Positions 29,886 to 49,641 of a stretch of 64,000 nucleotides of DNA are shown here, in pieces. The DNA comes from a virus: IMG/VR virus record IMGVR_UViG_3300044712_001906, positions 13,883 to 77,882 of that record, one strand, 5' to 3'. The notes beneath the pieces were generated by a model. The model made no database searches. It saw only the letters and a program-made list of their open reading frames with translations, and was not told the DNA's origin. Within the stretch, counting starts at the first letter, position 1, and every line of letters begins with the position of its first letter. A program made the position numbers and the translations under genes.

Positions 29886-31370
29886 TCAGAGGGTGAGCGA
29901 GACGTTCGTCCAGACCTTGTGCTTGCGCGGCGCGCGGACGTGCGGCGCCTTGAAGAGCATGGTCATGAACGGCTTGCTCGTGGCGACCTCCGCCAGCGGG
30001 CGGCGGATGACCGGGAGCAGGTTCGCGACGTAGAGCGAGTCGGGGTTCGTCTCGAGCGCGTAGACGTCGCTCGTGCCCGGGATGGACCGGTTCTCGTCGT
30101 AGAAGCCCGTCGAGTCGCCGCCCGTGCCGAGGAGGTTGCGCGCGAAGCGGCCGATGTACTTGCACGTGCTCGCGTCGCCGTCCTTGGCCGACCGGTAGAC
30201 CTCGTAGAAGCGGACCGAGTAGTCGCCCGAGGTCGGCGCGTCCGAGTCCTCGATGTCGATGAACACGCGGTCGCCGCTGGCCACCGTGACCGGACCCTTC
30301 GTGATGGGCGCCGCGCTGCCCTTGTCGCCCACGGCCACGATCTTGTAGTAGTAGTCGCCCAGGTCGGCGGCCTTGAAGTTCGTGTCCCCGCCCGCGTTCG
30401 GGCTGGTCAGCGTGATGTCCCCGCCGGCGACCACGGTCGGCGCCTTGCCGGAGGCGGTGGCCTTCGGGGTCTGCGCGTGGCGGATCATGGGGGTGGGCAT
30501 GAGCGGGATGGCCTCGCCCGTCGGACCGACGATGGAGAGCCGCCCGGCGTTGAAGGTCAGCATCGTGCCCGGGCCGAGGTCCATGGTCTGGAGCCGCGCC
30601 GAGGACTGCGAGAAGAGGCCGAGCAGGTTGCCGATGAGGGTCGTCGGCATGAGGATGGTGTCGACGTGCCCGTAGTACGGGTCGTCGGCGAGCTCGAAGA
30701 TGCCCGAGACGAAGTCCGCGAGCTGGAGCTTGCCGCCGTCGGCGTCCACGACGTTGCCGCCCGCCACGATCTGCTTGCGGATGCCGTCGAACTCGAGGGG
30801 GCTCATGGCGGTGTCGCCGTCGAAGAGCGACCGCTCGTACTTGCGCGAGAGGGACTGGACTGCCGCGCTCGTCTGGAAGTCGAGACCCGACTTGCTCACC
30901 TGCCCGCGGCCGAGGATGTCGGTGACCGCCGCGACGTCGGTGATGGACCGCTGGACGCCCAGGTACTTGATGCGGGCGATCTTGCGGTTGATCTCCGACT
31001 CCTCCTGCTCGGTCGTGCCGCCCTCGGCGAACGCCGCCGGGATGCCGTCGTCGCCGAACTGGGTCACGGTCGCGACCTCGTAGAGGGGCGAGCCGACGGC
31101 CTTCTCCTTCAGGAGCTTCTGCAGGACGAGGTCCTTGTCCTGGAAGGTCTCCGAGGTCCACTGCGTGTCGATCGCCTGCGTGACGAGCGGGGTGAAGGCG
31201 TCCGTGAACTCCTGACCCTGCAGGATGTTCGACACGTCGGCCTTGTAGAGCGGCTCGAGCTGCGGCAGCGCCTTCAGGAGCTGCTGCTGCGTCGGAGACG
31301 CCTTCGCCATGGCGACCGCGGCGCGGATCGCCTGGAACTCCTCGAAGCTGATGGTTCCGTGCCCTTCCAT
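29886..31370 (-). CDS. Major capsid protein (Herelleviridae-type)
   Basis: LFDGD...LEFDGI, NVVDADG, ILMP, YRS, DENRSIPGTSDV, LLPVIRRPLA, RAPRK match the recalled phage K/A511 Cps pattern; N-terminal propeptide with KA sites. Confidence 0.93.
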   Translation of the reverse strand: MEGHGTISFEEFQAIRAAVAMAKASPTQQQLLKALPQLEPLYKADVSNILQGQEFTDAFTPLVTQAIDTQWTSETFQDKDLVLQKLLKEKAVGSPLYEVATVTQFGDDGIPAAFAEGGTTEQEESEINRKIARIKYLGVQRSITDVAAVTDILGRGQVSKSGLDFQTSAAVQSLSRKYERSLFDGDTAMSPLEFDGIRKQIVAGGNVVDADGGKLQLADFVSGIFELADDPYYGHVDTILMPTTLIGNLLGLFSQSSARLQTMDLGPGTMLTFNAGRLSIVGPTGEAIPLMPTPMIRHAQTPKATASGKAPTVVAGGDITLTSPNAGGDTNFKAADLGDYYYKIVAVGDKGSAAPITKGPVTVASGDRVFIDIEDSDAPTSGDYSVRFYEVYRSAKDGDASTCKYIGRFARNLLGTGGDSTGFYDENRSIPGTSDVYALETNPDSLYVANLLPVIRRPLAEVATSKPFMTMLFKAPHVRAPRKHKVWTNVSLTL

Positions 31371-31394: not shown

Positions 31395-32135
31395 CTAGAG
31401 GCCGTACTTGGTGATGACGGCCGCCGGGTCCGAGCCCGGGCGATCGATGTCTCGCGCTGCCTTCTTGAGCTCCTCACGGCGCTCGCTGGTCGTGTCGCTC
31501 GCCTTGATGAGCGCCACGATCTTGCTGGCCACCTTGTCGCGGTCCTCGTTGGTCGGGACCGTCTGGGCGGACGGAGCGGCCGGCGTCCCCTTCGCGATCT
31601 GCTCGCCCGGTGGCGGCTGGATGACGACGTCGGCGACGTTCACGACGGCCTTGCCCGGGCGGGGCTCGGCCACGGCCTTCTCGAGCTCCCCGACCTTCGC
31701 GTGCAGCGAAGTGACGGTCTGGATGCTCGTCGCGACGGCCTTCACGAGCTCGCGGTGCGTGGCGCCGACGATCTCGAGGGCCTTGAAGAGCCCGGCGGCG
31801 CGGAGCATGGACGCGCCCTTGGCGGCCTGCTCCTCTTCGTCCTCGTCGCCGTCGTCGTCGGACGTGGCCTTGCCGTCCTCGTCGACCTTGCCGCCGCACT
31901 TGCCGCAGCACTTCTCCTCGGCCTTGGCGAGGCGCGCGGCCTCGTTGGTCGAGTCGAGGGCCTTGGCGACCTCCTCGAGGTGCCGGTCGAGCGCGGCCGG
32001 GTCGAGGTCGTTGAGCGGGTCGGTCTCCGCCTTGCACAGCCCGGCGGTGATCTGGGTCTGGACGATGGAGTCGATGAGGTCGGCTGCGAGGCCGCCCTTG
32101 GCCAGCGACTCGCGAAGCTCCTTCTCGGTCGGCAT
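31395..32135 (-). CDS. Capsid scaffold protein
   Basis: Between protease and MCP; helical with an acidic stretch; about ten hydrophobic-x-K-[A/G] sites. Confidence 0.8.
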   Translation of the reverse strand: MPTEKELRESLAKGGLAADLIDSIVQTQITAGLCKAETDPLNDLDPAALDRHLEEVAKALDSTNEAARLAKAEEKCCGKCGGKVDEDGKATSDDDGDEDEEEQAAKGASMLRAAGLFKALEIVGATHRELVKAVATSIQTVTSLHAKVGELEKAVAEPRPGKAVVNVADVVIQPPPGEQIAKGTPAAPSAQTVPTNEDRDKVASKIVALIKASDTTSERREELKKAARDIDRPGSDPAAVITKYGL

Positions 32136-32962
32136 CAGCGGTACTCCTGCGCGTCGCGCAGCAACTGGATTGCCGCCTCGCGGTTGAATTCCTCCGGGAG
32201 CCGGCGGACCACGCGGGCGATGAGCACGTCGACCGGTTCGAGCCCCTTGCAGAGGCGCGCCCAGTCGATGCCTGCCCTGGCGGCCGCGGCCTTCGCGATC
32301 GCGTCAGCGGCAGGCGACTCCTCGCGGAGCTGCGGCAGCGGACAGCCCGCCTTGGCCCACTCCTCGAGGCTCTGGTGACCCGTGCGCGCGAGGTGGGCCG
32401 TCATGCCGGCGGCCATCACGTCGAGCCACGAGTCGAAGTTGCGCGGCGCGGGGTCCACGGCGACCGTCAGGACACGCGCCTTCGTGATGCGCTTGCGGTC
32501 CGATGGGTCGCGCTCGAGGATCTCGCCCTCGACGGAGAAGCCCAGGCGCGTCCTCGCGCCCGACTTCGCCATGCCCTTGGCCGTCTCCCAGGCCTTACGC
32601 CCGAGCGGGTTCCAGAGGAACAGCTGCCCGCGCATCTTCATCGCGGCGACGCCGTCGTCGGTCAGAGTCGGGCTGATGTCGAGGGGCTCGCCGCAGATGT
32701 TGTCGTTGCGGGCGGGGTGGCCGTAGGAGATCTTCCCGAACGACTTGAAGAACGACCAGTCGATCCCGGACTGCACGACGACCTCGTCGTCGGCGTCGCG
32801 GCGCTCCGAGGTGATGATCCCCGACACGCGGCCGTGGTCCTCGTCACCGAGCGGCGACTGTGTGCCAGCCTTCTCGATGGGATCGCCGGCCTTCTCGAAC
32901 GGCTCCGCGTCGAACGGGAGCCACGAGTAGAAGCGATCGGGCTGGGTGCGGAGGGTCGCCAT
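32135..32962 (-). CDS. Prohead maturation protease
   Basis: GIITSERRDADDEVVVQSGIDW...YGH, LGFSVEG (Ser nucleophile region), VAVDPAPRN. Confidence 0.9.
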   Translation of the reverse strand: MATLRTQPDRFYSWLPFDAEPFEKAGDPIEKAGTQSPLGDEDHGRVSGIITSERRDADDEVVVQSGIDWSFFKSFGKISYGHPARNDNICGEPLDISPTLTDDGVAAMKMRGQLFLWNPLGRKAWETAKGMAKSGARTRLGFSVEGEILERDPSDRKRITKARVLTVAVDPAPRNFDSWLDVMAAGMTAHLARTGHQSLEEWAKAGCPLPQLREESPAADAIAKAAAARAGIDWARLCKGLEPVDVLIARVVRRLPEEFNREAAIQLLRDAQEYR

Positions 32963-32992
32963 GCCCCCCGATTCAGGGGGCACGTTTCAGGG

Positions 32993-33022: not shown

Positions 33023-36000
33023 TCACGGGTACCAGTAGTCGTACTTCGCGCCGTTCTTCTTCCGCATGCCGCCCTTCGTGCCGCCCGGGATGGCCTGCCA
33101 GCCGGCGCCAGTCGGACGCTCGCCTCCGTGCGTCGTTGATGCGGCATCGGTCGCCTTCGCGTGCTCCGCCTCGAAGGCCTTGACCTGTTCGTGGATGCCC
33201 TGCGCGCGGGCGATCTCCTGAGCCGCGATCTTGGGCTTGATGCCCCACGACTCGAGGTGCTCCGCCGTGATGCTCCCGTCGGCGACGCCCCTGACGAACT
33301 CGAGGTACGCGGCGCGGCGCGCTTCCTTCGTCGCCGTCTTGTCGCCCAGGGTCGCCCGCAGCCTGTCGAACGTCGCCCGGCTCGTCTTCGCCGCGTCCGC
33401 CCGGCGACGGAGGAGGCCCATGCCGACCTCGCCAGCCTTGCGATCTGGAGCGGACACGGTCTCAGGCTTCGCGCGATCTTCCTCGGGAGCGGCTTCCTCG
33501 TTCGGCGTCGGGGCGTCTGGCTCCGCCGCTGGGGCCTTCTCGTCGCGCTCCTCCGGGGCCTTCGTCGGCTGCTCGCTCTTGGGCTCGGACTTCTCGGGCT
33601 CGGGCTCGGGTTCGGACTTCGGTGGCTCTGCCGACTTGGGCGTCCGCTTCTTCTTCGCCCTGGCCGGCTTGGTCTTCTCGGGCTCGGGCTTGCCCTTGCC
33701 CTTGGGCGCCTTCGCGCCGTCAGGGTTGGGGGCGGCACCCGCCTTGCCCTTGCGCGGCTTCCTGGGTGTCCTCTCCGGCGCTCCCTTCGGGGCGGGCTCG
33801 GGCGCCTTCGATCCCCCGGAGGTCTCATCGATGGCGGGGTGCGGGGCGGGCGCCGGACGTGGCTTGCCCTTCGGCTTGGGCGCCACCGCGGCCGGCGAGA
33901 CCGGAGCGATCGGGTCGGCGCTGGGCGACACGAACGACGCGTCCGGCTTCTGGTAGCGCGCCTGATGCTCCGCGAGCGCGTCGACGAAGCCCTGATGCGA
34001 CTCCGCGACCTCGCGCTTGACGTCCCCCACGCGACGCTTCTCTCCCCCGAGCTCGATCTCCGCGTCGTCGGGGAGCTTGGCGAGCTTCTCGTGGGTGCGC
34101 GCGGTCGCGTCGACGTAGGTGGCGAGGGCCTCGTGCCGCTGGTAGTGCTTGGGGTCGTTGTAGCCCGAGGCCTCGGACGCAGCCCTGAGGTCGGCCGCGC
34201 GCTTGCGTGCCTTCTTCGACGCCGCCTTGATGAGGTCCGCGGCCCCGGCGCTCGCGCCAGCGAATAGGCCCGTCTGGCGCTTCCCGGCGTCTTTCTCGGA
34301 CCCGAGCATGTCTGCGAGGACGTCGGCTGTGCTCTTCGCTGGCCCCATGAGCGTCGACTGTCCGGCCGGGTTGCGCTGGGCGTGCTGGGCGATCTTGCGG
34401 AAGGCGTCGCTCATCTGGACGTGCCCAGTGCGTGTCGTGATGAGGTTCAGGACGTGCTTGCCCTCGGGCGAGAGCTTGGGCTTTGACCCGAAGCCGCCCG
34501 AGTCGCCTCCGAGGAGGTCGCCGAAGCCCTGATCGCGATCGAACTCGCTCACGCTCTTGATGTTGTGCTTGCGCATGTAGGCATGCGCCTGCACCGCCTC
34601 GACGAGCGGCGCCGAGAGGTCGTGCCCGGCCGAGCCCGACCGGACGATGTGCGGGACCGAGCGCGCGATCGCCTGGATCTGGCTCTGCGGCATGTCGCTC
34701 AGCGTGTCCGCGTGCGGGACGACCTTGCCGACGAGGAGGCGCTCGACGAAGGTCTTGCCGTCCTCGTTCAGCGCCCCGTCCTTGCCGAGGTACTGCGAGC
34801 GGTTGCGCCGATCGATGATGCCCGCGCGCTGCATCGCGTCGACGAAAGGCCGCGCGTCGGCCGACGACAGGTACGCGTTGAGCGTCGCGTGCTTGTCCTC
34901 GCCGTTGTCGGCCTTGGCCTCCATGCCCGTGGCGAGGGTCTGGAGCATCGCCGGGGTCACGAGGCGCGCCCGGGCGACCTGGTCCGTCCGCGGGTCCATC
35001 GACTGCGTGAAGGCCTCGTTGTAGCGGCGGACGAGCACGCCGAGGTTCTGCTTGCCCTGGTCCTCGACGTCGACCTGTCGCACCAGGACCGGCTGCTTGA
35101 ACTGCGACACGTCCTCGGGCGCGAGACCCCACTGGTGGGCGTTGTCCTTCAGGTGCTTGACGTAGGCCGCCCTCGCGTCGCCTCCCTTCTCGTGCGCGAG
35201 CTGGATCGACATCGTGCGCGAGTTGCCGCCGAGCACGATGCCCTTGTCGGTCACGAGCGGAGGCCCGTTGACGGCGTCGGGGTTGGTGTTCGCCACGAGG
35301 TCGGGCTTGAGCTTCTGCGCGTTCCTGAGCACCTTCTCCTGCTCTGCCTTGTCGCGATGGTAGACGCGCTCCTGAACTCCCTCCGGGTACTCCTCGCGCT
35401 GCTTGAAGCCCTTGGTGGGATCGTGCGACGCGATGAGGTCGGACGCCTCCATGAGCTTGTACCGCGCCGCCTGAGGGGTCGGAGAGCCGTCGGCGTCGGC
35501 GACGTAGACGGTCGTGCTCGAACCCGTCCCGGGCGCGGTCTCATCGCCGGCGTGCTTGGTGAGCGCGTGCCACTTCCCTTGCAGCTCGCGGTAGCGCTCG
35601 AGCTCGTCGAGCTTGCCGAGGTCCGGGTAGGCCTCAGCGGCGGCCTGGAGGCGCGCGAGCGCTGGCGACTCGACGGACTGCTTGGCGTAGGCGAGGAGCT
35701 GCTTGACGGCGCTCTCGTTGCCCTTGACCGCTTCGACGGCGCCGAGGAGCCCTTCGAGCTTCCCGAGGTCTGCGGCTGCGGCTGGGCGAAGCTCGTCGAT
35801 CGCCCGTCGCGACGACGCGGCCTCGACGACGTGGGCGGGTTCGACCTGCTTGGCGCCCGAGGTGCGCCGCAGGTTCTCCGCGCCGCGGGCGATCTGCCGC
35901 CCGGCTCCCGTGACCTCGCGCCCGGTCGCCTTGTGCGTGGCCAGCGCGAGGAGGACACCCTTCGCGTCGCCGGACCATCCGGGGCGCTGCGCGAGGAAGT

Positions 36001-39000
36001 CGACGAGGGCCTTGGCGTGCTTGAGGTCCACGCCCGCGGCCTGGAAGCGATCGCCGTAGGCCTTCCACATGGCGTCGGCGGTGTCGTGGGCGCCATCGGG
36101 GAGTTTGCCGACGGACGCGAGGAGCTGGCGCGCGATGGTCTCGGCGCCGCGCTCCATCCGCGCGCGGTAGACCGCGTGGAGCTCGTCATGGAGCGCCGAC
36201 AGGGGCAGCGTGCGCTCCTTGCCGGTCTTGGGGTCGCGGAGCGTCACCGAGCCGTCCTCGCCGACCTTCACGACGTCGGCGACGCCGTGACGGCGGAGGT
36301 TGATGCGCTCGCCCTCGCGCGCTTCGTGGGCGGTGGCCGCGTCGTGGTAGTAGTAGCGCCAGCCTCCCCCGGGCTTGGGCACGCGGCGGATGTACTTGTG
36401 GGAGCCGGCCTTCCAGAGCGCCTTTCCGATCTGGGCCGGGAGCTCGTGGCCGTGGGCGATGGCGGCGGAGACGGCCTTGATCAGCGAGGCATGGCGGGTG
36501 CTCGTGTCCGATGTAGCGAAGGCTTTGGCGAGGTGCCCGCCGTTCTTGAGGACGTCCATGAGCTTGCCCATGGCCGCAACGATGCGCGTGCGCTCGTCGC
36601 CGCTCGGGTAGGGCTGCGCCTCGGCCACGGCGCCGTCGGACCGCATGACGGTGACGCCGGTCCCGAAGACCTTGTCGGTGCCCGCGACCAGGTAGCCGTT
36701 CTCGCGCCCTCCCGCCTTGAGCGTGTCGTGGACGTAGGTCTCGAAGGCGCGCGCGAACAGCTCATGTGGCGACGCCCAATAGCCCTCGCCGAGCCGGACC
36801 GCCGATTTCACGAAGTCGGTCGCGGTGGCGGGCGTGTCGCGCCAAATCTTCTCCAGGCTCTTCGCGCGGTTGATGCTCAGGCGCAGGCTCTCGACGTCGC
36901 GCTCCAGCTTCGCCATGCGGGCGGCGTCCTCTGGCGTTCGGACCCGCTTGCTCTTGACCGCCTCCTCCTCGCGCTGGATCCAGTAGCTCCGCGCCTGCGC
37001 GGCCATGAGGAAGTCCTGCACCCGCTTCGGCGCCAGGCCCGGCTCGGCCGCCATGCCCTGATACTTGTCGCGCTCGGCGGCCCACTTCGTCGTGTTGAGC
37101 GCGAGGATCTCGTGGGCGCGCTTGAGCGCCGCCTCGTCGGCGACGGTCGAGCCCTTGATCTTCTCGTGCTCGCTCACGAGGTCGTTGGACTGCTGGATGA
37201 GGGCGTTGGTGTTGTCGGCCAGCGTGCGCGCGTGCTTCCGATGCGACTCTCTGGCCGCGTCGGGGTTGGGGTGCGCGGTGATCGCGTGCATCGCGGCGGA
37301 GACGGCTGCGTTGACGTCCGGCGGCAGGTTCGATCGCCCGCTGGCGTGCGACAGGAACGTGCCCTGCAGCGAGGTCGCGCTCCCGAGGTAGTGCTCCGCG
37401 ATCACGTTGTCGAGCGCGTGGCCCCACTCGTGAGCTACGGACCCGCCGCCGTTCAAGCGGGTGATGTTGATCTGCTTGCGCGACGGGGCGTAATGCGCCG
37501 CGGCCGCGCCTCGCCCGTCGGCGCCCAGCGCGATTCCGAGGCGCCCCTTGAACGAGACGACCGACGGGTCGATGCCCGTCACGTCGACGAAGTCGTGCAT
37601 GGCCGCTTCGAGCGCCCTGGTGTGATAGGCGCGGTCGGCCTGCGTCATGTAGCCGTCCTTCCCGTAGTCGACCTCGCGCAGCCCGAAGGCCTCGCGCATC
37701 CGCTCGGGGGAGACCCCCTCGGGCATGGGGCGCCCGCCGACGCGCTTGAACTCGCCGTCGCTGCGCTTGGCGCCGCGCCACGAGAGGGCCTCTTGTGCCG
37801 ACTGGCGCCCGGAGACCTTCGGCGCCTTCTCGCCTGCCTCCTTCGGCTTCTGGCTGTCCTCCATCCACGCCCAGCCCCTCGCCTGCGCGGCCTGCGCTTC
37901 GGCGGGCGGGAGCGGGGCGCCGCGAACGAGCCCGTCCAGCTCCTTCGCCTTCTCGGTCGTGGCGTACAGGTGGCGCCCCTTGTCGAGTAGGCGTGTGAAG
38001 TTGGCCCCCAGGGCGTCGTAGGGCCGCGGGACCTTGTGAACGATGGTGAAGGCGTAGACGTGGTGGTCGTAGACGAGGCGGTACTCCTCGCCCTTGTTCG
38101 CTGCCGCCAGCGCCCGCGCCTTGTCGGACGCCTCGCGGCTCGACGCGTACTCGCCAGTCCCCGGTACGCGGGCGTACTTGCTCGCGCTCTCGCGCCGGTG
38201 CTTCATCTCCAAGAGCAGACGGCCAATGTCCCCGAGGTCGCGGACGTTCTTGAGCGCGCCGTGAAGCTGCCGTAGGTCTTCGGCATAGGCCATTTGCTCG
38301 GCCTTGTTCGCGCCCGGCTTCTCGCGCACGGCCGAGAGGATGGCGATCGCGCAGTAGGCCGTGCCAGGCGTCATCCCGGCCGCCTTCGCGTGCGCCAGAT
38401 CGATCGGCTCGACGAGGCGGCTCTTGCGGACGATGTGCGCCGCGTCGTCGTATCCGAGGCGGCTGATGTCATCCAGGCTGACGGTCGCCAGCGCCGCGAG
38501 ATCCTTGCGCGAGCCCCAGACGTGATCGCCCGTGGCTTCGATCTTGCCGTCGAGGCCCTTGACCCCCTCTGGCTTCTGCCGCGGCTTGCGGGGCATTTTC
38601 TCCACCGGAGGGGTAGGCGCCGGAGCCGGAGCGGGGTCGGGAGCCGGAGCAGGCGCCGGTGGCGGGGGCGCCGGGGCGGGCTTGGCCTCGGGGGCGTCGT
38701 CGCCCTCGGGGGCATCGTCGAGCTTCCGGAGGTGGCCTTCCATCCACTCGGCCGCGGAGAGCCACGCGTCGGCGTGGTAGGTGTTGCCGGGGAGGCGCCG
38801 TTCGATCTCGGTGAACAGGTCCTTCCGGGCGCGGATCTCGGCGATGGCGGCCTGCAGCTTGCCGCGCTCCGCCGCCGCCATGGGCGCCACGGTGTCGCGG
38901 GTCAAGGCGAGGAGGTGCTCCAGGCCTTCGACCTTCTGCCGCCAGATTTCCGTCGGCGTGTGCGGGTGCTCGGCGCCGTAGTAGCCGGCGAGGTCGTCGG

Positions 39001-40633
39001 TGCGCCCGTCGAAGAGCTGCTGCAGCTCCCTCTTCGCCGCGGTCATGCTCTGCGGCACGGTGCTCTTTGGCGCGTGCCCGCGCTCCCACATGAGGAGGGC
39101 CGTCGCCGAGCGGAGGCCTGGCATCCAGGCCTGCTTGTGGAGCGCCGAGAAGTCGTCCGCGATCTGGGCGCCGGTGCGCTCGGGGGCGGGCTCGGGCGCT
39201 GGGGCTACCGGAGGAGGCAGGGCCGGTTCCTTCGCCTTCCGGTTCTTCGCAGCCGCCTCCCTCCGCTGCTTCAGCTCCGCCTCCGAGAGCCCCGCGCGCT
39301 TGGCGAGCCCTTCGGCACGCTCGACCTGCTTCAGCGTCCCGTGCGCGTGGGCCTCGTCGAGCACGGCGCTGGCCTTCTTCTTCGCCTCGTCCATCGCGGC
39401 CGCATGCTCGCTTCGGAGGAGCTCGGCGAGCCTCTGTTTCGTGATGACCTGTGTGGCGCCCGTCTCGTCGTGTTTGACGGTGACGTGGTCGCCCGGCGAC
39501 GCCCCGATGATGTGGTAGTGGCCCTCGCCGACACGGAACGCTGCGCCCACGACGAAGTGCTTCTCGTCCGCGACGCCTCCGCCATGGTGGACGGCGTAGA
39601 AGTACCTGTACCCGCCACCGCTCTTCGGGACGCGCTTGATGTACTTGTGCCCCGCGCCCTTGAAGAGCCGCTCGCCGACGTCAGCCGGTAGGGGAACCCA
39701 GAAGCTCACGCCGCGGCGCCCGGACATCGAAGCGGCCATGGGCTCGCGGCGGAAGATGTCGACCTGGCCAGTGCCCTGCCCGTGCATGGTGACCTCGTTG
39801 GCGTGATGGACCTTCGGCCCCTGCGGCGTGTGGACGAGGACAGCCATGCGTCCCGTCCGCTCGTGGACCCCGACCGCCTTGACCTCGTGGAGGTTGCCTT
39901 CGCGGTCTCGGATGATGGCTCCGCGCTGGAGCGCCCGGCCGTGCGGGTTCTCGTGGCGCCAGGCTATGTGGTGTGCCGGGTCGACGTACCTGCCGCCCTT
40001 CGGACCGATGAAGACCGCCTGCGGGCGCGGCTTCGCCGGTGCGGCGCCCGACTTCGCGGGCTCGCCGTCTGGCACGTGCTTCGGGGCCCCGAAGAGGTCG
40101 GCCTGCGCGGCCTTCTCGACGGAGCTCGGCCCGCCAGTCATCGCTCGAGCGCGCTCACGCCCGTCCTCGGCGACGATCTCCTGCGGGTAAACGACGGCGG
40201 CGGCGTACTGGTAGCGCTTGGCGAAGCCGTCGACCTCGTCCTCGTCTGGGCGCAGCCGGTCGCCGGAGATCGACACCGTGAGGATGACAGGCCTGCCGCC
40301 GTGCTTGGCGACGGCGCCGAGGGCGTAGGACTCGGCCGATGCCGGGCCGGTTGGCTTGGCCGTCAAGTAGACGACTGGAGCGCGCTCGGAGTCCTCGCCC
40401 GTCAGGTTGGATCGCGCGTGACAAGCGCCCAGGCCTTCCTCGAGGATGCGCGGCAGCAGGGCGGAGCTCGTGCCGTGGAAGAGGCGCACGCCCGGTTGCC
40501 CGCGGAGCTCCTCGAACGGTGGCGGGGCCATCCAGTCGATGGTGCCGCGCCAGTCGAGGTCGCCGACGTTGCGGCCGTCCTGAGGAACGAGCGTCATGCC
40601 CATCTTCTCGGGCAGGTCGATGGGCAGCGTCAT
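33023..40633 (-). CDS. Large polyvalent head protein: ART-like, SH3-like, LPD5/LPD1 zincin and DdrB-like ParB domains
   Basis: LFHGTS...ILEEGL...VYLT (ART); GDHVWGSRKDL (LPD5-like); HEWGHALD, YWASPHELFARAFE, PYPSGDER (LPD1); ARYKLMEASDLIASH...GPPLV...VLGGNSRTM (ddrB-ParB). Confidence 0.88.
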   Translation of the reverse strand: MTLPIDLPEKMGMTLVPQDGRNVGDLDWRGTIDWMAPPPFEELRGQPGVRLFHGTSSALLPRILEEGLGACHARSNLTGEDSERAPVVYLTAKPTGPASAESYALGAVAKHGGRPVILTVSISGDRLRPDEDEVDGFAKRYQYAAAVVYPQEIVAEDGRERARAMTGGPSSVEKAAQADLFGAPKHVPDGEPAKSGAAPAKPRPQAVFIGPKGGRYVDPAHHIAWRHENPHGRALQRGAIIRDREGNLHEVKAVGVHERTGRMAVLVHTPQGPKVHHANEVTMHGQGTGQVDIFRREPMAASMSGRRGVSFWVPLPADVGERLFKGAGHKYIKRVPKSGGGYRYFYAVHHGGGVADEKHFVVGAAFRVGEGHYHIIGASPGDHVTVKHDETGATQVITKQRLAELLRSEHAAAMDEAKKKASAVLDEAHAHGTLKQVERAEGLAKRAGLSEAELKQRREAAAKNRKAKEPALPPPVAPAPEPAPERTGAQIADDFSALHKQAWMPGLRSATALLMWERGHAPKSTVPQSMTAAKRELQQLFDGRTDDLAGYYGAEHPHTPTEIWRQKVEGLEHLLALTRDTVAPMAAAERGKLQAAIAEIRARKDLFTEIERRLPGNTYHADAWLSAAEWMEGHLRKLDDAPEGDDAPEAKPAPAPPPPAPAPAPDPAPAPAPTPPVEKMPRKPRQKPEGVKGLDGKIEATGDHVWGSRKDLAALATVSLDDISRLGYDDAAHIVRKSRLVEPIDLAHAKAAGMTPGTAYCAIAILSAVREKPGANKAEQMAYAEDLRQLHGALKNVRDLGDIGRLLLEMKHRRESASKYARVPGTGEYASSREASDKARALAAANKGEEYRLVYDHHVYAFTIVHKVPRPYDALGANFTRLLDKGRHLYATTEKAKELDGLVRGAPLPPAEAQAAQARGWAWMEDSQKPKEAGEKAPKVSGRQSAQEALSWRGAKRSDGEFKRVGGRPMPEGVSPERMREAFGLREVDYGKDGYMTQADRAYHTRALEAAMHDFVDVTGIDPSVVSFKGRLGIALGADGRGAAAAHYAPSRKQINITRLNGGGSVAHEWGHALDNVIAEHYLGSATSLQGTFLSHASGRSNLPPDVNAAVSAAMHAITAHPNPDAARESHRKHARTLADNTNALIQQSNDLVSEHEKIKGSTVADEAALKRAHEILALNTTKWAAERDKYQGMAAEPGLAPKRVQDFLMAAQARSYWIQREEEAVKSKRVRTPEDAARMAKLERDVESLRLSINRAKSLEKIWRDTPATATDFVKSAVRLGEGYWASPHELFARAFETYVHDTLKAGGRENGYLVAGTDKVFGTGVTVMRSDGAVAEAQPYPSGDERTRIVAAMGKLMDVLKNGGHLAKAFATSDTSTRHASLIKAVSAAIAHGHELPAQIGKALWKAGSHKYIRRVPKPGGGWRYYYHDAATAHEAREGERINLRRHGVADVVKVGEDGSVTLRDPKTGKERTLPLSALHDELHAVYRARMERGAETIARQLLASVGKLPDGAHDTADAMWKAYGDRFQAAGVDLKHAKALVDFLAQRPGWSGDAKGVLLALATHKATGREVTGAGRQIARGAENLRRTSGAKQVEPAHVVEAASSRRAIDELRPAAAADLGKLEGLLGAVEAVKGNESAVKQLLAYAKQSVESPALARLQAAAEAYPDLGKLDELERYRELQGKWHALTKHAGDETAPGTGSSTTVYVADADGSPTPQAARYKLMEASDLIASHDPTKGFKQREEYPEGVQERVYHRDKAEQEKVLRNAQKLKPDLVANTNPDAVNGPPLVTDKGIVLGGNSRTMSIQLAHEKGGDARAAYVKHLKDNAHQWGLAPEDVSQFKQPVLVRQVDVEDQGKQNLGVLVRRYNEAFTQSMDPRTDQVARARLVTPAMLQTLATGMEAKADNGEDKHATLNAYLSSADARPFVDAMQRAGIIDRRNRSQYLGKDGALNEDGKTFVERLLVGKVVPHADTLSDMPQSQIQAIARSVPHIVRSGSAGHDLSAPLVEAVQAHAYMRKHNIKSVSEFDRDQGFGDLLGGDSGGFGSKPKLSPEGKHVLNLITTRTGHVQMSDAFRKIAQHAQRNPAGQSTLMGPAKSTADVLADMLGSEKDAGKRQTGLFAGASAGAADLIKAASKKARKRAADLRAASEASGYNDPKHYQRHEALATYVDATARTHEKLAKLPDDAEIELGGEKRRVGDVKREVAESHQGFVDALAEHQARYQKPDASFVSPSADPIAPVSPAAVAPKPKGKPRPAPAPHPAIDETSGGSKAPEPAPKGAPERTPRKPRKGKAGAAPNPDGAKAPKGKGKPEPEKTKPARAKKKRTPKSAEPPKSEPEPEPEKSEPKSEQPTKAPEERDEKAPAAEPDAPTPNEEAAPEEDRAKPETVSAPDRKAGEVGMGLLRRRADAAKTSRATFDRLRATLGDKTATKEARRAAYLEFVRGVADGSITAEHLESWGIKPKIAAQEIARAQGIHEQVKAFEAEHAKATDAASTTHGGERPTGAGWQAIPGGTKGGMRKKNGAKYDYWYP

Positions 40634-41809
40634 CTAGTCCTCCGCGTCGACGGCGTGCGACGGACGCATGTTCCAGTGCTTGTCGAAGGCGAAGCCTGGC
40701 GGGACGACTTGCGTGGAGCAGCGACAGTTCGGGTGCCCGGGCCACAGCCCCGCCTGCTTGTCCTCGTCCTTCACGCCCACGCCCGTCCCGTTCTCGACGA
40801 GCCGCGCCACCGTCCAGACCTTCGGCCGCCCGCCGCCGTCGAGGTAGAGCCTCCGGCAGAGCGCGCACGCCCCCGACTCGGGGATGCGTGCGACCTGGGC
40901 GTCCGGCCCGAAGTCCCTGACCGCGGTGATCGCCACGCCCTCGTTGTGCGTCGCCTGGAGCTCCGTGCGGGCGATGCGGAGCCAGTTGCGCGTCCAGTCG
41001 CCCGTTCGGTGCCCGAGGTCGCTCGCGAGGTCCTCGGCGGTCTGCCCGGTGGCGATGGCGTCGGCCACCTCCTCGCGGATGGCCTCGCGCGTGGCGATGC
41101 GCTGGTCCTGGTCGACCTCGCTCTGGATGTCCTCGCCCTGCCAGACCTCGCGCTCGCGCGTCGCCCACTCGGTCACGTCGTTCTCGACGCGGTTGCCGAG
41201 GCCGCGCACGTACTCGGCGCCGCGCGTCCGCGCCTGGATCCACGACTCCCGTTCCTGGGGCGTCAGGTACTCCGGGGGCGCGGGGATGGGCGGCTCTCCG
41301 CCTCCTCCTCCCCCGCTCCCCCCCGGAGGGGTAGGCGGCGCAGGCGCCGATGGTCCGCCACCGTCTGCGGCCGCTGCGGGACCTCCGAGCTCCGGCGGCG
41401 CTTGCACGCGCTCGCGTAGCGCTGCCTCCGTTTGCACGGCCTGCAGCTCGTCTTCCTCGCGCCGCCGCGCGATCTCGGCGCCGACGGCCGGGAGCCAGCG
41501 CGAGAGCGGCCAAGCCCGCATCTGCTTCACGAGCGACGGGGCCGCACCGGCCATGAGCGCGCCCATGAGCAGGGCGAGCGCCCACGGGTCCATCGCAAGC
41601 TGGCTCTTCGGACCGCCTGCGCGCGCGCCACGCGAAGGTGCCGGGGCTGGCACGGCAACGGCAACGTCCACGGGCGCCTCGAGGACGCCGGCGTCGATGA
41701 GCTCGCTCATGCGCTCGGGCGTGACCGCTGACGGCCCGAAGGCCTGCACGAGCCACGCGTCGTTGTGCGCCCTGGCGATGGCTGCGGGGTCGGTGAGGGG
41801 CTCGGCCAT
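40634..41809 (-). CDS. MuF-like minor head (head morphogenesis) protein
   Basis: RIARTE, ACALC and HPNCRC motifs; ATG at 41809. Confidence 0.88.
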   Translation of the reverse strand: MAEPLTDPAAIARAHNDAWLVQAFGPSAVTPERMSELIDAGVLEAPVDVAVAVPAPAPSRGARAGGPKSQLAMDPWALALLMGALMAGAAPSLVKQMRAWPLSRWLPAVGAEIARRREEDELQAVQTEAALRERVQAPPELGGPAAAADGGGPSAPAPPTPPGGSGGGGGGEPPIPAPPEYLTPQERESWIQARTRGAEYVRGLGNRVENDVTEWATREREVWQGEDIQSEVDQDQRIATREAIREEVADAIATGQTAEDLASDLGHRTGDWTRNWLRIARTELQATHNEGVAITAVRDFGPDAQVARIPESGACALCRRLYLDGGGRPKVWTVARLVENGTGVGVKDEDKQAGLWPGHPNCRCSTQVVPPGFAFDKHWNMRPSHAVDAED

Positions 41810-42063
41810 CACGGCCTCCCCGAGCACGCCTGCCTCGTCGCCAGGATGTCCGCGCGGAGCCGCTCGGCTCTGCGCTGGTAGGCTCGCGTCATCATCGCTG
41901 CGAGCTCGTCGAGGGCGGTCACTTCGCCGCCGGCAGGCGCGCCGACGCCCTTGGCGATCGCCTCGCGCGCCGTGTAGAACGCCTCGTCGAGACGCGCGGC
42001 GACCTCGGCGGCCGTCAGGCCGTCAAGCTCGCCAGGCCTCGACTCGACGATGGCGACGCGCAT
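41809..42063 (-). CDS. Small hypothetical head-region protein
   Basis: Coupled to the MuF start; contains IAKG. Confidence 0.6.
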   Translation of the reverse strand: MRVAIVESRPGELDGLTAAEVAARLDEAFYTAREAIAKGVGAPAGGEVTALDELAAMMTRAYQRRAERLRADILATRQACSGRP

Positions 42064-42463: not shown

Positions 42464-44083
42464 TCAGACCTCCACCATCCACGCTCGCGCCTGCGGGCGC
42501 GTCACGGGCACGCGCCTGGCGGTTGCTCCCTTGCCGAACGCAGCAGCGAAGGCGTCCGCCGCGTCGTCCACCTGTCCGCCCGTCTCGTCGTCGAGCTGCG
42601 GCGCGCCGTCAGGCCCCTGCGGCCCGGCACCTTCCGCGTCGCCACCGTCGCCCGGCTGCCCGCCACCGTCCTGCGGCGCTGCGGCCGCCTGTGCCGCCTG
42701 GAGCCACGTGGCGTTCAGAATGACCTGCCCCTTGCCGTCCGGAAGGGGCTTCATGTCGTGCTCGGCGCGGATCTCGTCGACCATCATGAAGTGCTGGCAG
42801 CGCTTGACGTCGTTCTCGAGCTTCTCCGTCTCGCTCATCGAGTCCATGCCGGCGAACTCGAGCTCGAAGTCCTCGTTGATCGGCCAGACGATGTGCTCGT
42901 TCAGCGCGTTCTGCGCCGAGCGCACGAACGGGCGGATGCCGCCTTCCTTGGAGTTGGCAATCCGGTCGCGCGGGTTCGCGCTCGCCAGCGCGTTGGTCTG
43001 GTTCTCGTTGCCGTAGACGTACCCGCTCTCGCTCGGGTCCATCAGGAACAAGGCGTGGATGATCTTGTTCAGGAAGCCGATCCAGACCGAGAACTCCATC
43101 TCGCGGTTGTTCGACGAGAGGTTGACGGCCTTCAGCTCCTCGTCCTTGCTCGGGTCGAGGCGGAGGATCGGGGTCTTCTTGGCGTTGCGCGGCCCCGAGA
43201 GCATCGCGCGCACGTACTGCGTGAACGCGGCGAAGTTCTTGGGATCCATCGCGCTCTTGAGCGTGAGGATCGTGCTGACGTGGACACCATTCGTGAAGTT
43301 CGCGTCGTTGTAGGCCGCCGCGTTCAGGTAGCTCTGGAGGACCTGCACGGCCTCGTCGAGCTCGGGGAAGCCGTAGCCGCAGACGTTGACGTCGGTCCGC
43401 GGGCGACGGACGCAGAACGCGAGCTCGTCGCCGTCGAACTGCTGGACGATGCGCCCCTGGATGACCTGCGCGAACTGGCGCTCGGACGGCGGACGGCCCG
43501 TGCTCAGGTCCTTGGGCCGAGCGATCCGAATCGTCGACCCGTCCACGGCGCGGAAGCCAGCGGGGCGGTTGCCCTTGCTGTAGAGCTTCTCGAAGCAGGC
43601 CTGGTCGTAGATGAGCGCGTCACGGCCCCAGAGCCGGAGGAAGGTCTCGAGCGAGCCGTTGCCGTGCTTGCCGCCCGTCGTCAGGACGAGCTTCGTCAGG
43701 TCTCGGATGACCTTCTGCGCCGCCCGCGTCGGATGCGCCTTGGGGTCGCGCATCTTGATGACCGTGCCGATGCCGTACCGGTTGGGCTGCGGAACGGCGA
43801 ACTCGGCGAGCTGATTGATGCGCCTGGAGATGATCGGCGCGACGACCGGCACCCGGGCCATGCGGGCGAGCGCATCGTAGGTCAGACCGATCGTGCCGTG
43901 ATGGGTCGGGTCCTGCGCGCCGAACCAGAACGCCATCTGCAGCGGGTCGAACGCCCATGCCTCGCCAGGCACGGTGGGCGGCGGCGGGACTGATGCGGAT
44001 GCGGGCGCCACGTCGCCCGGGTCCTGCCTCCGTCTGGCCTTGCCGAGGCCGAAGGCCCGCTTCGTCGCGTCCCAGAAGCCCAC
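42464..44083 (-). CDS. Portal protein (Herelleviridae-type)
   Basis: DQACFEK, AVDGSTIR, GYGFPEL, MEFSVWIGFL...LFLMDPSE; likely GTG start at 44083. Confidence 0.92.
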   Translation of the reverse strand: MGFWDATKRAFGLGKARRRQDPGDVAPASASVPPPPTVPGEAWAFDPLQMAFWFGAQDPTHHGTIGLTYDALARMARVPVVAPIISRRINQLAEFAVPQPNRYGIGTVIKMRDPKAHPTRAAQKVIRDLTKLVLTTGGKHGNGSLETFLRLWGRDALIYDQACFEKLYSKGNRPAGFRAVDGSTIRIARPKDLSTGRPPSERQFAQVIQGRIVQQFDGDELAFCVRRPRTDVNVCGYGFPELDEAVQVLQSYLNAAAYNDANFTNGVHVSTILTLKSAMDPKNFAAFTQYVRAMLSGPRNAKKTPILRLDPSKDEELKAVNLSSNNREMEFSVWIGFLNKIIHALFLMDPSESGYVYGNENQTNALASANPRDRIANSKEGGIRPFVRSAQNALNEHIVWPINEDFELEFAGMDSMSETEKLENDVKRCQHFMMVDEIRAEHDMKPLPDGKGQVILNATWLQAAQAAAAPQDGGGQPGDGGDAEGAGPQGPDGAPQLDDETGGQVDDAADAFAAAFGKGATARRVPVTRPQARAWMVEV

Positions 44084-44089
44084 GCTACA

Positions 44090-44119
44090 ACGGTGGGGCC
44101 GATGCGGCAGGGCGTTAAG
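44090..44119 (-). promoter_or_regulatory. Putative late promoter, copy 3 (CTTAACGCC-N15-CACCGT)
   Basis: Motif ends 27 nt before the portal GTG; no SD, suggesting a leaderless transcript. Confidence 0.6.
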
Positions 44120-44255
44120 GCGGCCGGGGCCGCCGCGGTCGAGCTCGTTGCTGGTCTGCTTGCCGATGCCGACCGCTATGGATGGCCCGTGGACCTCCGA
44201 GAAGCAGTCACGTTGGACGCCCGGAAGTCGTCTCGCGACGTTCCGGCTCCCGTCA

Positions 44256-47200
44256 TCACGTGGCGAAGCGCCCGTCGTCGAGCTGGCGGACCTGGCCGTT
44301 GTCGACAAGGACCGCCAGGATGTCGCCGACGTCGGCTGCGGGCGCCTGCGCGAAGGTGGCGGCCAGCGCTTCGAGCGTGAGCGGCGCGGCCGCCGTAGCT
44401 AGGACCGCTCGAACTGCGCGGACGCGCTCGAGGACGGACGACGGCCACGGTGCCGAGGACGCAGGGCTCGGTGCCGGCGCGGCCTCGTCGTCCTGGGTCT
44501 CTTCCTCAGCCGCGGGCGCTGCGTCCTCGGTGGCCGCGGCGCCGCGCTGGAAGTCGGGGCGCAGCCAGCGGACGAGGCCGCGCTTCTCCTCCTCGACCCG
44601 CTCGGCGTTCAGTGCCACGAGGCGCTCGAGGATCTCCTCGCCGGTGAGCGTGGTCGGCCAGCCGTAGGCGTCGAAGACTGCGGCGTCGAGATCGTCGTGG
44701 AGCTTCAGCAGGATCGAGCAGAGGCCCTGCTCGTGGACCTTCTTCTCCTTGGCCGTCAGGGCTTCGCCGCTCCGGAGCTTCTCGAGCACGTTGTACATGT
44801 TGGTGAGGGTCAGGTCCGGGTGCGCGGCCTGCTGGCGCTTGCGGTGGGCGTCGAGGGCCTCGGCGAGCTCGCGGATTCGGGCCTGCTGGGGCTCGGTCGC
44901 GGCGGGGAAGGGGAAGGGGTCGAAGCAACGACTCTTGGCGTAGACAGGATCGTCGCCGACTCCCAGTCGGCCGCCTGCGGCGATCGACCAGAGTATGTGT
45001 GGTCGGCCGCACAGGTTGCCCAGCACGAAGGCGTCGTCGGAGGCGACGACAACGTTCTTGTGCACACAGAGATAGGCAGACTCAATGAACTGAAAGATGC
45101 GGTGCTTCGCGGTCTCGGTCGTGGCCATGTACCGCCGGAGGCCGGAGAGTGCCCGTCGGAGTTCGGGTCGTTCCCATCCAAAGCGCCACCATAACTCGCG
45201 AATCGTCTTGCGACGGTTCTCCTTGCGCTCCGGCAGGACGTGATCCACAAGATGCTGGAGTGCACTCGCGTTCGCCTGCCGCGCCGCGTTTTCGGACATC
45301 CCCGAGAAGTCGATCACATACTGCTCGCGGCACTTCTGGAGGAGGTCCCGACCGCCAAGGAACGGTCGTATCACCCGGCCATCGCCCGCCGCTCGGAGGG
45401 CGCTGGCAACGCCAGGTTCAACGATGAATCCGGCGCCGTGCAACGCGACGCCGTTCGCCGCGCATCCCGAGTTGGCGCGAAGGGGCATCGCGGCAGCCAC
45501 GTTGGCCCCCGCCGAGAGATCAGCGTGGACGCAGTCGACCGCGCGCGGCTGAAGGATCACTGTGGATGCCCCTGCCTCGTCATGCTGTCTGCCCTCCGAG
45601 ACGACCCGCAGCAGCATTGCTGGCCCGGTGTTGGCGTCGGCGCATGTCATGGCGACGCGCACATCGGCACCATCGGTGCTGTCGACCCAAGGATGGTTCG
45701 GGACGGCCCACGCAATCCTGACCCCTGCCTCGATCTGCCGCACCAACACGCGCCGGTTGAACGTCTGCGTGATGCTGTTGGTGGTGATGAAGCCGAACCG
45801 GCGGAGCTTGCCGGCCGAGACCAGGTTGCCGGCCTCGTTCCACCAGTACATGACGAAGTCGGCGTTGTCCTCGACCTCGCCTGACCACGCCCGACGGAGG
45901 GCGTCCACGTAGCCGTCCCCGAGCGCTGCTCGCATGCGCTTCGTGCCCAGGAACGGCGGGTTGCTGACGACGTAGGCCGCGTCTGGCCACTCCGCCTTTC
46001 TCGCGTTGACGTACCTGTAGAGCGGCTTCCGCGCCGTCTCGTCCGGCACCTGCTTGCCGGTCACGGGATGGGTCTTGGTGGTCTCGCCATCCCACACCGT
46101 GACCGGCTTCCCATCCTCCCCAACCACCACCTCCTCCGCGTCGTAGGCCAGCACGGCGTCCCTGCACTCGATGTTCTTGAAGTCTCGCAGCACCGGCTCG
46201 GTGACCTGGACGCGGCCGAGCGTGCGGAAGTGCCACTGCAGGTAGCCGATCCAGAGCACGAGCTCGGCGATCGCCGCCGCGCGGGGGTTCTTCTCGATGC
46301 CGAGGAACTGGTGCGGGTCGACCGTCTGGCCCCGCAGCTCAAGCGTCTCCTGGGCCGCATCGAGGTCAGCGAGCGCCTCGAGCACCTCGCCCTCGAGCCG
46401 CTTCATGTGCTCGAGGGTGACGTAGAGGAAGTTCCCCGTCCCGCAGGCCGGGTCGAGGACGCGGAGGCTCGTGAGCTCCCGGCGGAAGTCGGAGATGAGC
46501 TTGACCGCCTCCTCCTGCTTCTTCCCGGCGGCGCGAAACGTCTTAGCCTTCGTGCCCTTGAGCGCGAGCGCCGCCGCCTTGACGGACTGCCACTCCTCGC
46601 GCAGCGGCTCGATGACGGTCGGGAAGACGAGTCGCTCCACATACGCGCGCGGGGTGAAGTGGGCGCCGAGGGCGTGGCGCTCGGCCGGGTCGAGGGCGCG
46701 CTCGAGGAGCGTCCCGAAAATGGCCGGCTCGACATGGCTCCAGTCGGTCCGGGCCGCGTCGATGAGTAGATCGATCTGTGGGGTCGAGAGCTGGATGGCC
46801 GTCGCATCCTTGAAGAAGCGCCCGTTGAACCGCAGGAGCTTCGTCCGGAGGGACGGCGAGAAGCCGCCGCGATCCATCTCGTGCCAGAGCGACTCGAGCA
46901 TGCTCGCGAGGGCCGCGGGCTCCGAGCGCATGTCCGTCAGGAGCTTGGTGAAGCTGTCCTTCGGGATGAGCCCGACGTCCTCGGCGAACATCGTGAAGAG
47001 GCACCGCATGAGGAAGTCGGCCACGAGCTGCGGGTGATGCCGCGCCGCCTCGAGCGACTTGGCGAGGGCCGCGAGGCGTGCGGCGATCTTCTGGGTCACC
47101 TCGGCGGCGTAGCGGCCCGGGTCGAGCGTCATCGGCTCGGTCCAGACGCGTCGCAGTCGGTTCGCGATGGCGGGGTCGGCGAGATCCTCGAGGGCGAAGC

Positions 47201-49294: not shown

Positions 49295-49641
49295 TCGCGC
49301 CGCTCCCACGCCTCGAGCACCGCCTCGGTGATCTTCGCGGCCGCATCGGTGACGGCGCCCCTCGGCAGGCGGCCTCCGTGCGCGGTGAGCAGCGGCGCGA
49401 GCTCTGCTTCGGCTGCTCCGATCGCCGCGTCGAGTCGCTCCGCTCGGTCGCTTGCGGCCGCCGCGGCGTGCCGCGCGTCTTCCTCGGCGTCGGCCACGTA
49501 GGTCACCGGGCCGATGAGCCACTCCTCGCCGTCCATCGCTTCGACGCCATCGAAGTAGACCTGATCGTACCGTGGAGGGTGGCGCGTTCCTGCCGCTCGC
49601 TTGGCCGCTGGCGCGTACTTCTCAGGGAAGCCGGGCTTCAT
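49291..49641 (-). CDS. Hypothetical protein
   Basis: ATGA-coupled; starts MKPGFPEKY. Confidence 0.55.
   Translation of the reverse strand: MKPGFPEKYAPAAKRAAGTRHPPRYDQVYFDGVEAMDGEEWLIGPVTYVADAEEDARHAAAAASDRAERLDAAIGAAEAELAPLLTAHGGRLPRGAVTDAAAKITEAVLEAWERRE

Follow-up and report, generated by a model that had tools for sequence, protein, structure and literature searches.

For the maturation of polyvalent proteins into working effectors, the only published proposal is self-processing by a zincin. An alternative is suggested by a gene in a viral DNA stretch of 64,000 nucleotides (nt; positions 13,883 to 77,882 of IMG/VR record IMGVR_UViG_3300044712_001906), to which we refer as the window. The gene encodes a protein of 2536 amino acids (aa) with a full-length mass of 272 kDa, in which disparate domains stand in one chain, namely LPD1, a DdrB-type ParB domain (ddrB-ParB), a zincin with a HEWGH motif and a predicted ADP-ribosyltransferase (ART) fold; proteins of this kind are the phage-type polyvalent proteins of Iyer, Burroughs, Anand, de Souza and Aravind, 2017 (PMC5512222). 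An initial annotation, read from the letters of the DNA, had placed the gene between those for MuF and the prohead protease and had suggested that the head protease cuts its product at lysine motifs. The position was borne out by the Pfam and PHROG matches of the neighbours, and the open reading frame (ORF) proved intact. The gene thus lies among late/virion genes, in the order portal, MuF, polyvalent protein, prohead protease, scaffold and major capsid protein (MCP), followed by tail sheath and baseplate genes. The polyvalent and protease genes are separate, with 39 nt between them. Coordinates are collected in Table 1.

A Pfam search with the prohead protease gave no match. By tblastn, however, it aligned with annotated Herelleviridae prohead proteases at 25-33% identity (E down to 7e-17) and with ORF1 of A511 (E=1e-8), and by homology the gene qualifies as that of a putative Herelleviridae-type prohead protease. 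MCP and protease alike are distant relatives of their Herelleviridae counterparts (about 25-33% identity), and single-protein IMG/VR scans returned no close relatives of either. Further genes in the window, for tail sheath, baseplate and terminase, indicate that the phage is of the myovirus type.

The specificity of this protease was approached through motif counts. Within this phage the motif was defined as [LIVMFW]-x-K-[AG] and in its relatives as [LIVMF]-x-K-[S/G/A], with Ser allowed at P1'; expected counts were obtained from shuffled sequences. The motif occurs ten times in the scaffold (1.0 expected), six times in the prohead protease (0.68 expected) and five times in the MCP (1.3 expected), in agreement with its earlier description as abundant in the scaffold and present in the two other proteins, but it is not enriched in MuF, the portal protein or an MmeI-like enzyme encoded nearby. 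We collected 145 IMG/VR loci, in many of which the same head module was recognised. In 26 distinct scaffold-position ORFs from these loci the motif was found 225 times against 35 expected, with p<=0.01 in 24 of them. For 24 scaffold-position proteins the preferences could be resolved by position: at P1 Lys alone is enriched (222 against 32, 6.9-fold; Arg 0.84-fold, Glu 1.08-fold), at P1' Ser, Gly and Ala alone are enriched (5-11-fold), and at P3 Leu, Ile, Met and Val are (5-8-fold).

An experimentally mapped maturation site of a known capsid protein anchors this pattern. The mature Cps of Listeria phage A511 is annotated from S24, directly after …DALK23 (GenBank X91069.1, mat_peptide, K23↓S24; here and below an arrow marks the actual or presumed cut). 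With the sole exception of the ORF of locus L045, all lineage MCPs with an N-terminus on record carry L-x-K↓A at aa 25-35, which by eye matches the A511 site, both preceding a shared …L..ES/QS.E stretch by a similar distance. The lineage proteases have sites close to both termini. The scaffold statistics and the A511 anchor together uphold the earlier assignment of hydrophobic-x-K before a small residue (h-x-K↓S/G/A) as the specificity, and very probably the head protease of this lineage cuts at this sequence.

In A511 and in locus L007, the MCP sequence surrounding the cut site recurs in the C-terminal part of the protease. In A511 (L146, X91069.1; 2-670 and 1726-3129), TFMK↓SWTTGHGTTPDTQVNAGALRRE of ORF1 corresponds to ALK↓SFTTGYGITPDTQTDAGALRRE of Cps; in L007 (16411-17076 and 17829-19265), the protease has LRK↓ALSVGYQTAAG and the MCP LRK↓AASVGYQTGA. 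An extended recognition element beyond P3, P1 and P1' was also considered, and was dropped when no profile common to protease N-termini and the linkers of the cassette described below was found.

Nine [LIVMFW]-x-K-[AG] sites are present in the giant protein, and those listed by the initial annotation, which had described them as lying at module boundaries, are at the coordinates it gave. Conservation does discriminate between boundary sites and internal ones. K325, at a module border, is conserved in 15 of 17 aligned homolog segments, K1370, just after LPD1, in 14 of 22, and K1408, again at a module border, in 19 of 21; moreover, K1370 and A1371 are invariant in alignment A1 of homologs, and comparable site clusters follow LPD1 in distant relatives. 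The intra-module sites K885 (LDK↓G) and K1524 (MWK↓A), on the other hand, are conserved in 6 of 31 and 6 of 26 segments. The giant protein therefore carries the consensus site of its own phage's scaffold and capsid propeptide, and at K325, K1370 and K1408 this site is kept across homologs of 30-45% identity while the internal sites decay. Two further candidates lie towards the two ends of the protein. K174 falls within a stretch of low predicted local distance difference test scores (pLDDT) in the AlphaFold 2 (AF2) model (aa 155-204), and the stand-alone ART homolog P0268 stops at about aa 166; both facts fit a border at K174. K2136 lies 30-40 aa beyond the end of the ParB-block homology (aa ~2097-2126).

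Two of the three conserved sites, K325 and K1408, belong to an uncatalogued cassette, the HKY cassette, which has the form L-x-K-[G/A]-x-G-H-K-Y...R-Y-x-Y followed by a small beta-barrel. The sequence after both lysines follows G/A-x-G/S-H-K-Y-I-[KR]-R-V-P-K-x-G-G-G-[YW]-R-Y-x-Y. In 24 aligned modules, whose mean column identity is 24%, the site Lys and the core Y, R, Y and Y are invariant. In the AF2 model of cassette 1 a low-confidence linker (pLDDT 45-60) runs up to K325 and is followed by the hairpin and by a beta-barrel and helices with pLDDT >90. Neither Pfam nor PHROGs holds a family for the cassette, and a Foldseek comparison of its model with the PDB gave no match at E<=0.001 and just weak SH3/KOW-like rows.

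A profile search of 1.84 billion representatives retrieved 1,138 cassette clusters (50% identity) at E<=0.001. Statistics were based on 199 cassettes in the 143 best new representatives. [LIVMFW]-x-K-[AGS] is present within 16 residues upstream in 194 of the 199, compared with 8% of control windows, and Leu occupies P3 in 74% and Gly or Ala P1' in 96%. For a minority the site lies 8-13 residues upstream behind unrelated spacers, and h-x-K-[AG] is kept. A position within 60 aa of the N-terminus was found for 84 of the 199 instances. Homologs of head-module proteins (portal, MuF, protease or MCP) are encoded within 10 kb in 58 of 66 cassette-retrieved loci. Scaffolds have A, G and S mixed at P1' and cassettes have G or A, with no clear co-variation across loci, and we therefore make no argument from co-evolution.

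The distribution of the cassette bears on whether the protein is instead cut by its own zincin (HEWGH plus LPD1), before packaging or after injection, the lysine motif being irrelevant. Iyer et al. proposed this for polyvalent proteins and P1 DdrB (PMC5512222), and it is consistent with an intact HEWGH, in which H1068, E1069, W1070 and H1072 are invariant (alignment A1), and with the location of the best-conserved site cluster directly behind the zincin/LPD1 unit. However, the cassette with its invariant Lys is present in many zincin-free proteins, a zincin is found within 10 kb in only 7 of the 66 cassette loci (none in 59), and several cassette-bearing homologs lack LPD1. In addition, the tetrapeptide is the one that fills the scaffold, and a zincin carried as cargo has no known reason to cut scaffolds. 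Because cassettes sit in zincin-free proteins and loci, self-processing fits poorly and we consider it improbable.

The head-protease site is also found at the N-termini of other genes in the block. Relatives in which the gene is split encode the cassette behind an N-terminal leader of 10-40 aa. Among head-block ORFs, defined as those between portal and protease/MCP with MuF excluded, 32 of 47 have a site within aa 6-48, compared with 17 of 108 ORFs elsewhere (Fisher p=5.6e-10). Leaders that end in a site are thus typical of head-block genes, including cassette-free ones, and this is the pattern that would be expected, by analogy with the T4 internal proteins, for capsid cargo bearing a propeptide. 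In the window itself, an 84-aa ORF between portal and MuF (41809-42063, minus strand) opens with MRVAIVESRPGEL… and contains AIAK↓G (aa 36-39). Large and small head-block proteins in L014, L050, L118 and L143 start with a comparable leader, M-[RK]-h-x-LEA-[TS]-P-x-EL…h-x-K↓A.

In a distant sub-lineage (L029-L042) the protease and scaffold sites are mostly K↓S, and the cassette is absent. Its giant proteins have …IDLxK↓[S/A]-W-R-E leaders and site clusters after LPD1. The use of K↓S/A-W-R-E leaders in place of the cassette by the K↓S lineage is the sole sign of co-variation, and no more than a hint. In five loci (L029, L030, L038, L040 and L042) the giant cargo proteins open with …IDLxK↓[SA]WRE..HPRD. 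In the same five the protease ORF is extended at its C-terminal end by a long acidic stretch that contains 11-15 l-x-K↓S sites; this may reflect fusion of the protease to a scaffold.

Several observations weigh against cleavage of the giant protein by the head protease. The nine motifs in it are what chance would give (8.65 expected from shuffling, p=0.5), and in a permutation test only two of six site clusters coincide with automatically called homology borders (p=0.47), so that the broader claim of motifs at every module border in excess of chance has no statistical support; K885 and K1524 are inside modules and poorly conserved, and support for boundary sites comes from the conservation of K325, K1370 and K1408. 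No site lies at the module borders of aa ~450 and ~695. K174 and K2136 are shared with one relative only, P0006, and as this protein is 64-72% identical their retention says little. In 167 of the 194 cassette instances the site Lys lies exactly five residues from H-K-Y, and with such a fixed spacing its role in the cassette could lie in structure or binding and not in cleavage. A single-sequence tblastn against 50,697 phage records gave no match to the cassette in cultured phages. The scaffold-position ORF2 of A511 is not enriched in the motif (2 against 1.5 expected), so that scaffolds with many sites characterise this lineage and not the protease family as a whole. Finally, other giant virion proteins, the N4 virion RNA polymerase among them, are packaged uncut (PMC5512222).

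The chance-level count would also be accounted for if the sites were fortuitous matches in an Ala/Gly/Lys-rich sequence and the protein were no capsid cargo. This we regard as very improbable, since three sites persist across divergent homologs, the gene lies between MuF and protease with homologs in the same block, and ddrB-ParB is a phage-type polyvalent domain usually found beside virion genes (PMC5512222). The main rival is another one, in which the invariant Lys has a structural or docking role. The protein would then be packaged and ejected uncut, as the N4 polymerase is, L-x-K-[G/A]-x-G-H-K-Y would be an element contacting, for example, DNA, the portal or the capsid interior, and its likeness to a protease site would be coincidence or mimicry. 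The constant distance to H-K-Y, the lack of overall enrichment and the non-significant border test are all consistent with this. Yet the cassette residues at P3, P1 and P1' (L/V/I/M, K and G/A/S) match the specificity derived from scaffolds, the minority cassettes retain h-x-K-[AG] in spite of their unrelated spacers, the segment is modelled with moderate confidence only, and site-ending leaders occur on head-block genes that in part have no cassette. On balance we consider an uncut, docking protein rather unlikely.

Since the conserved joints carry the lysine signal of scaffold and capsid maturation, the head protease would probably cut the giant protein into separate injected proteins. The cargo protein would be expressed late and would enter the prohead along with MuF, the scaffold and the protease. 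The Herelleviridae-type protease, cutting after Lys in [L/I/M/V/F]-x-K↓[S/G/A], would cut repeatedly in the scaffold, a single time at the capsid propeptide and also at its own termini, and would meet the same site again in flexible linkers of the cargo. The most secure cuts would be those before each HKY cassette (K325 and K1408) and just after LPD1 (K1370); K174, which follows the ART domain, and K2136, which precedes the tail, are less secure. Cuts at K174, K325, K1370-1408 and K2136 would yield fragments of about 19, 16, 113, 79 and 43 kDa, two of which would start with the G/A-x-G-H-K-Y hairpin, and the fragments would be ejected together with the DNA. Packaging, cleavage and ejection with the DNA are what we infer from domain content, gene context, motif statistics and site conservation. 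To processing by the head protease at K325, K1370 and K1408 we attach an even chance, and to processing at K174 and K2136 a lower one. On the most parsimonious view, units with separate genes in relatives are fused in the giant protein, and the head protease would trim cargo at these sites.

A more general proposal can be made only tentatively, and we hold it with somewhat less than even confidence: the cassette may be an undescribed 'cut-and-tag' element of a large uncultured phage lineage whose heads are Herelleviridae-like. Cutting at the invariant Lys by the head protease, behind an N-terminal leader or an internal linker, would leave every cargo unit with the same basic hairpin at its start, which would serve capsid retention or co-ejection with DNA, and the giant polyvalent proteins of this lineage would be true polyproteins matured by the head protease and not by their own zincin. 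The locus and its relatives in any case offer a testable alternative to the published proposal, with a named protease, a four-residue site with P3, P1 and P1' preferences, and predicted neo-N-termini. In metagenomic phages, genes for candidate capsid cargo are marked out by the cassette family, and the conserved cassette could serve to load foreign proteins into capsids.

Comparison with known systems shows both precedents and differences. P1 DdrB, which contains a DdrB-ParB domain and a C-terminal zincin, is proteolytically processed and incorporated into the phage head (PMC5512222), and the polyvalent protein gp47 of phi24B was detected in virions by proteomics (10.64898/2026.04.10.717836). 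With DdrB and other polyvalent proteins the protein described here shares a late-gene chain of many unrelated domains, among them zincin, DdrB-ParB and LPD1, and virion-gene neighbours. It differs in that the proposed cutter is a prohead protease acting in trans at an h-x-K↓small site instead of the protein's own zincin, in its two copies of a cassette that lies outside Pfam and PHROGs, and in a head module that is Herelleviridae-like and not P1-like.

Head-protease processing is established for the ejected proteins of T4, phiKZ and SPN3US, where it occurs after Glu (PMC9026906, PMC10052503, PMC7411985). As in T4 IPI-III and Alt and in the phiKZ and SPN3US ejection proteins, the cargo bears the same consensus site as the scaffold and the capsid propeptide. 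In those phages packaged and ejected cargo is trimmed by the head protease during maturation, whereas here such cutting is proposed. Their proteases, which belong to a different family, cut after Glu (L/I-x-E or S/A/G-x-E), whereas the present one would cut after Lys; and T4 cargo loses a short N-terminal targeting peptide, whereas in the present case one giant chain would be cut at several internal joints to give several products. By this analogy the processing suggested here is plausibly a variant of the T4/phiKZ type.

With A511, a member of the Herelleviridae, the lineage shares a homologous protease and a homologous MCP, which in A511 is cut between Lys and a small residue (…ALK↓SFTTGYG), but the scaffold-position ORF of A511 differs in motif content, and no cassette or polyvalent cargo gene of this kind was found in cultured Herelleviridae (single-sequence tblastn). 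Assemblin-like prohead peptidases fused to polyvalent proteins have been described, and a role in processing during virion assembly was suggested for them (PMC5512222). Cargo modules and head protease are linked in both cases, through a C-terminal peptidase there and through adjacent genes here; no cleavage motif was described for the fusions, whereas for the separate genes studied here a site can be read from scaffold statistics. The initial annotation had known of no explicit description of such cleavage. This holds in part: the suggested role of prohead peptidases and the T4, phiKZ and SPN3US precedents (PMC5512222, PMC10052503, PMC7411985) go before it, but our literature search found no description of lysine-site processing of polyvalent proteins and no proteomics on phages of this lineage. 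New are the Lys-specific site deduced from scaffold statistics, the conserved positions that this site takes in polyvalent proteins, and the uncatalogued cassette.

Table 1. Features of the head-gene block and of the polyvalent protein (window coordinates; all on the minus strand)
Feature	Position	Strand	Residues	Basis or remark
Portal protein	42464..44308	-		Pfam Phage_portal, phrog_12
MuF-like minor head protein	40634..41827	-		Pfam Phage_Mu_F, 26 bits (below cut-off); PHROG 115
Polyvalent cargo gene (P0001)	33023..40633	-	2536 aa	Intact ORF; Pfam LPD1 and ddrB-ParB
ART-fold domain (predicted)	40115..40522	-	38-173	AF2 and VIA-align
VEK↓A	40109..40120	-	K174	Candidate site after ART domain
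Small Tudor/SH3-like beta-barrel (predicted)	39779..40018	-	~206-285	VIA-align
LFK↓G	39656..39667	-	K325	Candidate site, start of cassette 1, module border
HKY cassette/module 1	39224..39658	-	326-470	G-A-G-H-K-Y-I-K-R...Y-R-Y-F-Y hairpin, beta-barrel, helices
Zincin metallopeptidase core	37223..37756	-	~960-1137; HEWGH 1068-1072	Alignment A1, PHROG, NCBIfam
LPD1	36542..36793	-	1281-1364	Pfam PF18796, 65 bits (cut-off 27), E=6e-18
LAK↓A, LIK↓A, IGK↓A, LWK↓A	36407..36532	-	K1370, K1386, K1404, K1408	Four-site candidate cluster
HKY cassette/module 2	35984..36409	-	1409-1550	Second copy
DdrB-like ParB	35072..35470	-	1722-1854	Pfam PF18763, 67 bits (cut-off 27.6), E=1.8e-18
LIK↓A	34223..34234	-	K2136	Candidate site before tail
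Pro/Lys/Glu-rich tail and C-terminal helical part	33026..34225	-		Sequence; common to P0006
Prohead protease, GFSVEG motif	32135..32983 (likely start ATG 32962)	-		phrog_1028, E=1e-20
Scaffold-position protein	31395..32135	-		Motif count; 10 hxK[AG] sites
MCP	29886..31370	-		phrog_752, E=7e-48
MCP propeptide sites MAK↓A, LLK↓A, LYK↓A	31242-31244 (K43)	-	K43 (LYK↓A)	Sequence

The modules of the giant protein were delimited by BLAST against 123 domain-shuffled homologs. Residues 3-177 are common to P0006 alone and are followed by a unique stretch (aa 178-306). A mobile module of ~130 aa, present in 1-4 copies in relatives, starts at aa ~322; a helical, Pro/Ala-rich stretch that is again unique follows, and then the zincin region (aa ~695-1137) with LPD1 after it. 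The block from aa ~1400-1413 to ~2100-2126 contains the second copy of the mobile module and the ParB domain, and about 20 homolog alignments of this block start at cassette 2. The predicted order is thus ART fold, small beta-barrel, HKY cassette 1, zincin plus LPD1, HKY cassette 2, DdrB-type ParB and basic tail.

The domain map of the initial annotation is essentially right, as the results of Pfam, alignment A1 and AF2/VIA-align agree with the modules it listed, with the exception of LPD5. The AF2 model of aa 1-330 is of low confidence (mean pLDDT 48, core 60-79). With this limit, the best structural match of the ART region by VIA-align is 9ld3_A, a chain in an ADP-ribose complex (Z 10.2), further matches being Arr, tRNA 2'-phosphotransferases, pertussis S1 and Scabin (overall Z range 6.6-10.2), and in agreement with this the ESM Atlas leads to Arr and DarT/PARP clusters. 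No Pfam ART family was matched even at E<=1. The sequence of this region contains H-G-T (aa 53-55) as well as a VVYL strand and a PDEDE stretch. The structural matches support, at fold level, an ART fold for aa 38-173, as had been supposed. In the same low-confidence model, aa 215-285 match Tudor, KOW and SH3 barrels (Z 5-6.4, VIA-align), in line with the small SH3-like module of the earlier reading. The combined LPD5/LPD1 HExxH zincin was confirmed for LPD1 and for the HEWGH motif, but Pfam did not detect LPD5 in the giant protein, and searching eight separate segments against Pfam gave nothing besides LPD1 and the expected DdrB-like ParB. The zincin core, which has partial PHROG and NCBIfam CLCA_X matches, is the segment most widely shared among homologs.

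The last 27 aa of the protein (aa 2510-2536; 33026-33106, minus strand), …GGERPTGAGW…KKNGAKYDYWYP or, in outline, …GGERP…KYDYWYP, appear to be a third hairpin copy in degenerate form. They also match P0022 (BLAST) and resemble the variant K-[GS]-T-W-G-A-E-R-P-G-H-K-Y…G-G-G-Y-D-Y-E-Y at the N-termini of L003 and L050 proteins.

At the other end of the gene, the TAG stop codon of MuF abuts the in-frame ATG of the polyvalent gene (window 40631-40636, minus strand, …GAG GAC TAG ATG ACG…). Read-through of this TAG would result in a MuF-polyvalent fusion, which L005 and L015 encode as one ORF. Directly upstream of the portal gene, with an overlap of about 50 nt, lies the gene of the MmeI-like enzyme (44256-47762, minus strand), a complete Type IIL restriction-modification enzyme with Pfam MmeI_N, MmeI_hel, MmeI_Mtase and MmeI_TRD domains. 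A homolog of a DNA repair exonuclease (phrog_704; 47846-49522, minus strand) is encoded between this gene and the terminase region, and the large terminase gene is located at 55840-57588, 8 kb beyond the MmeI-like gene.

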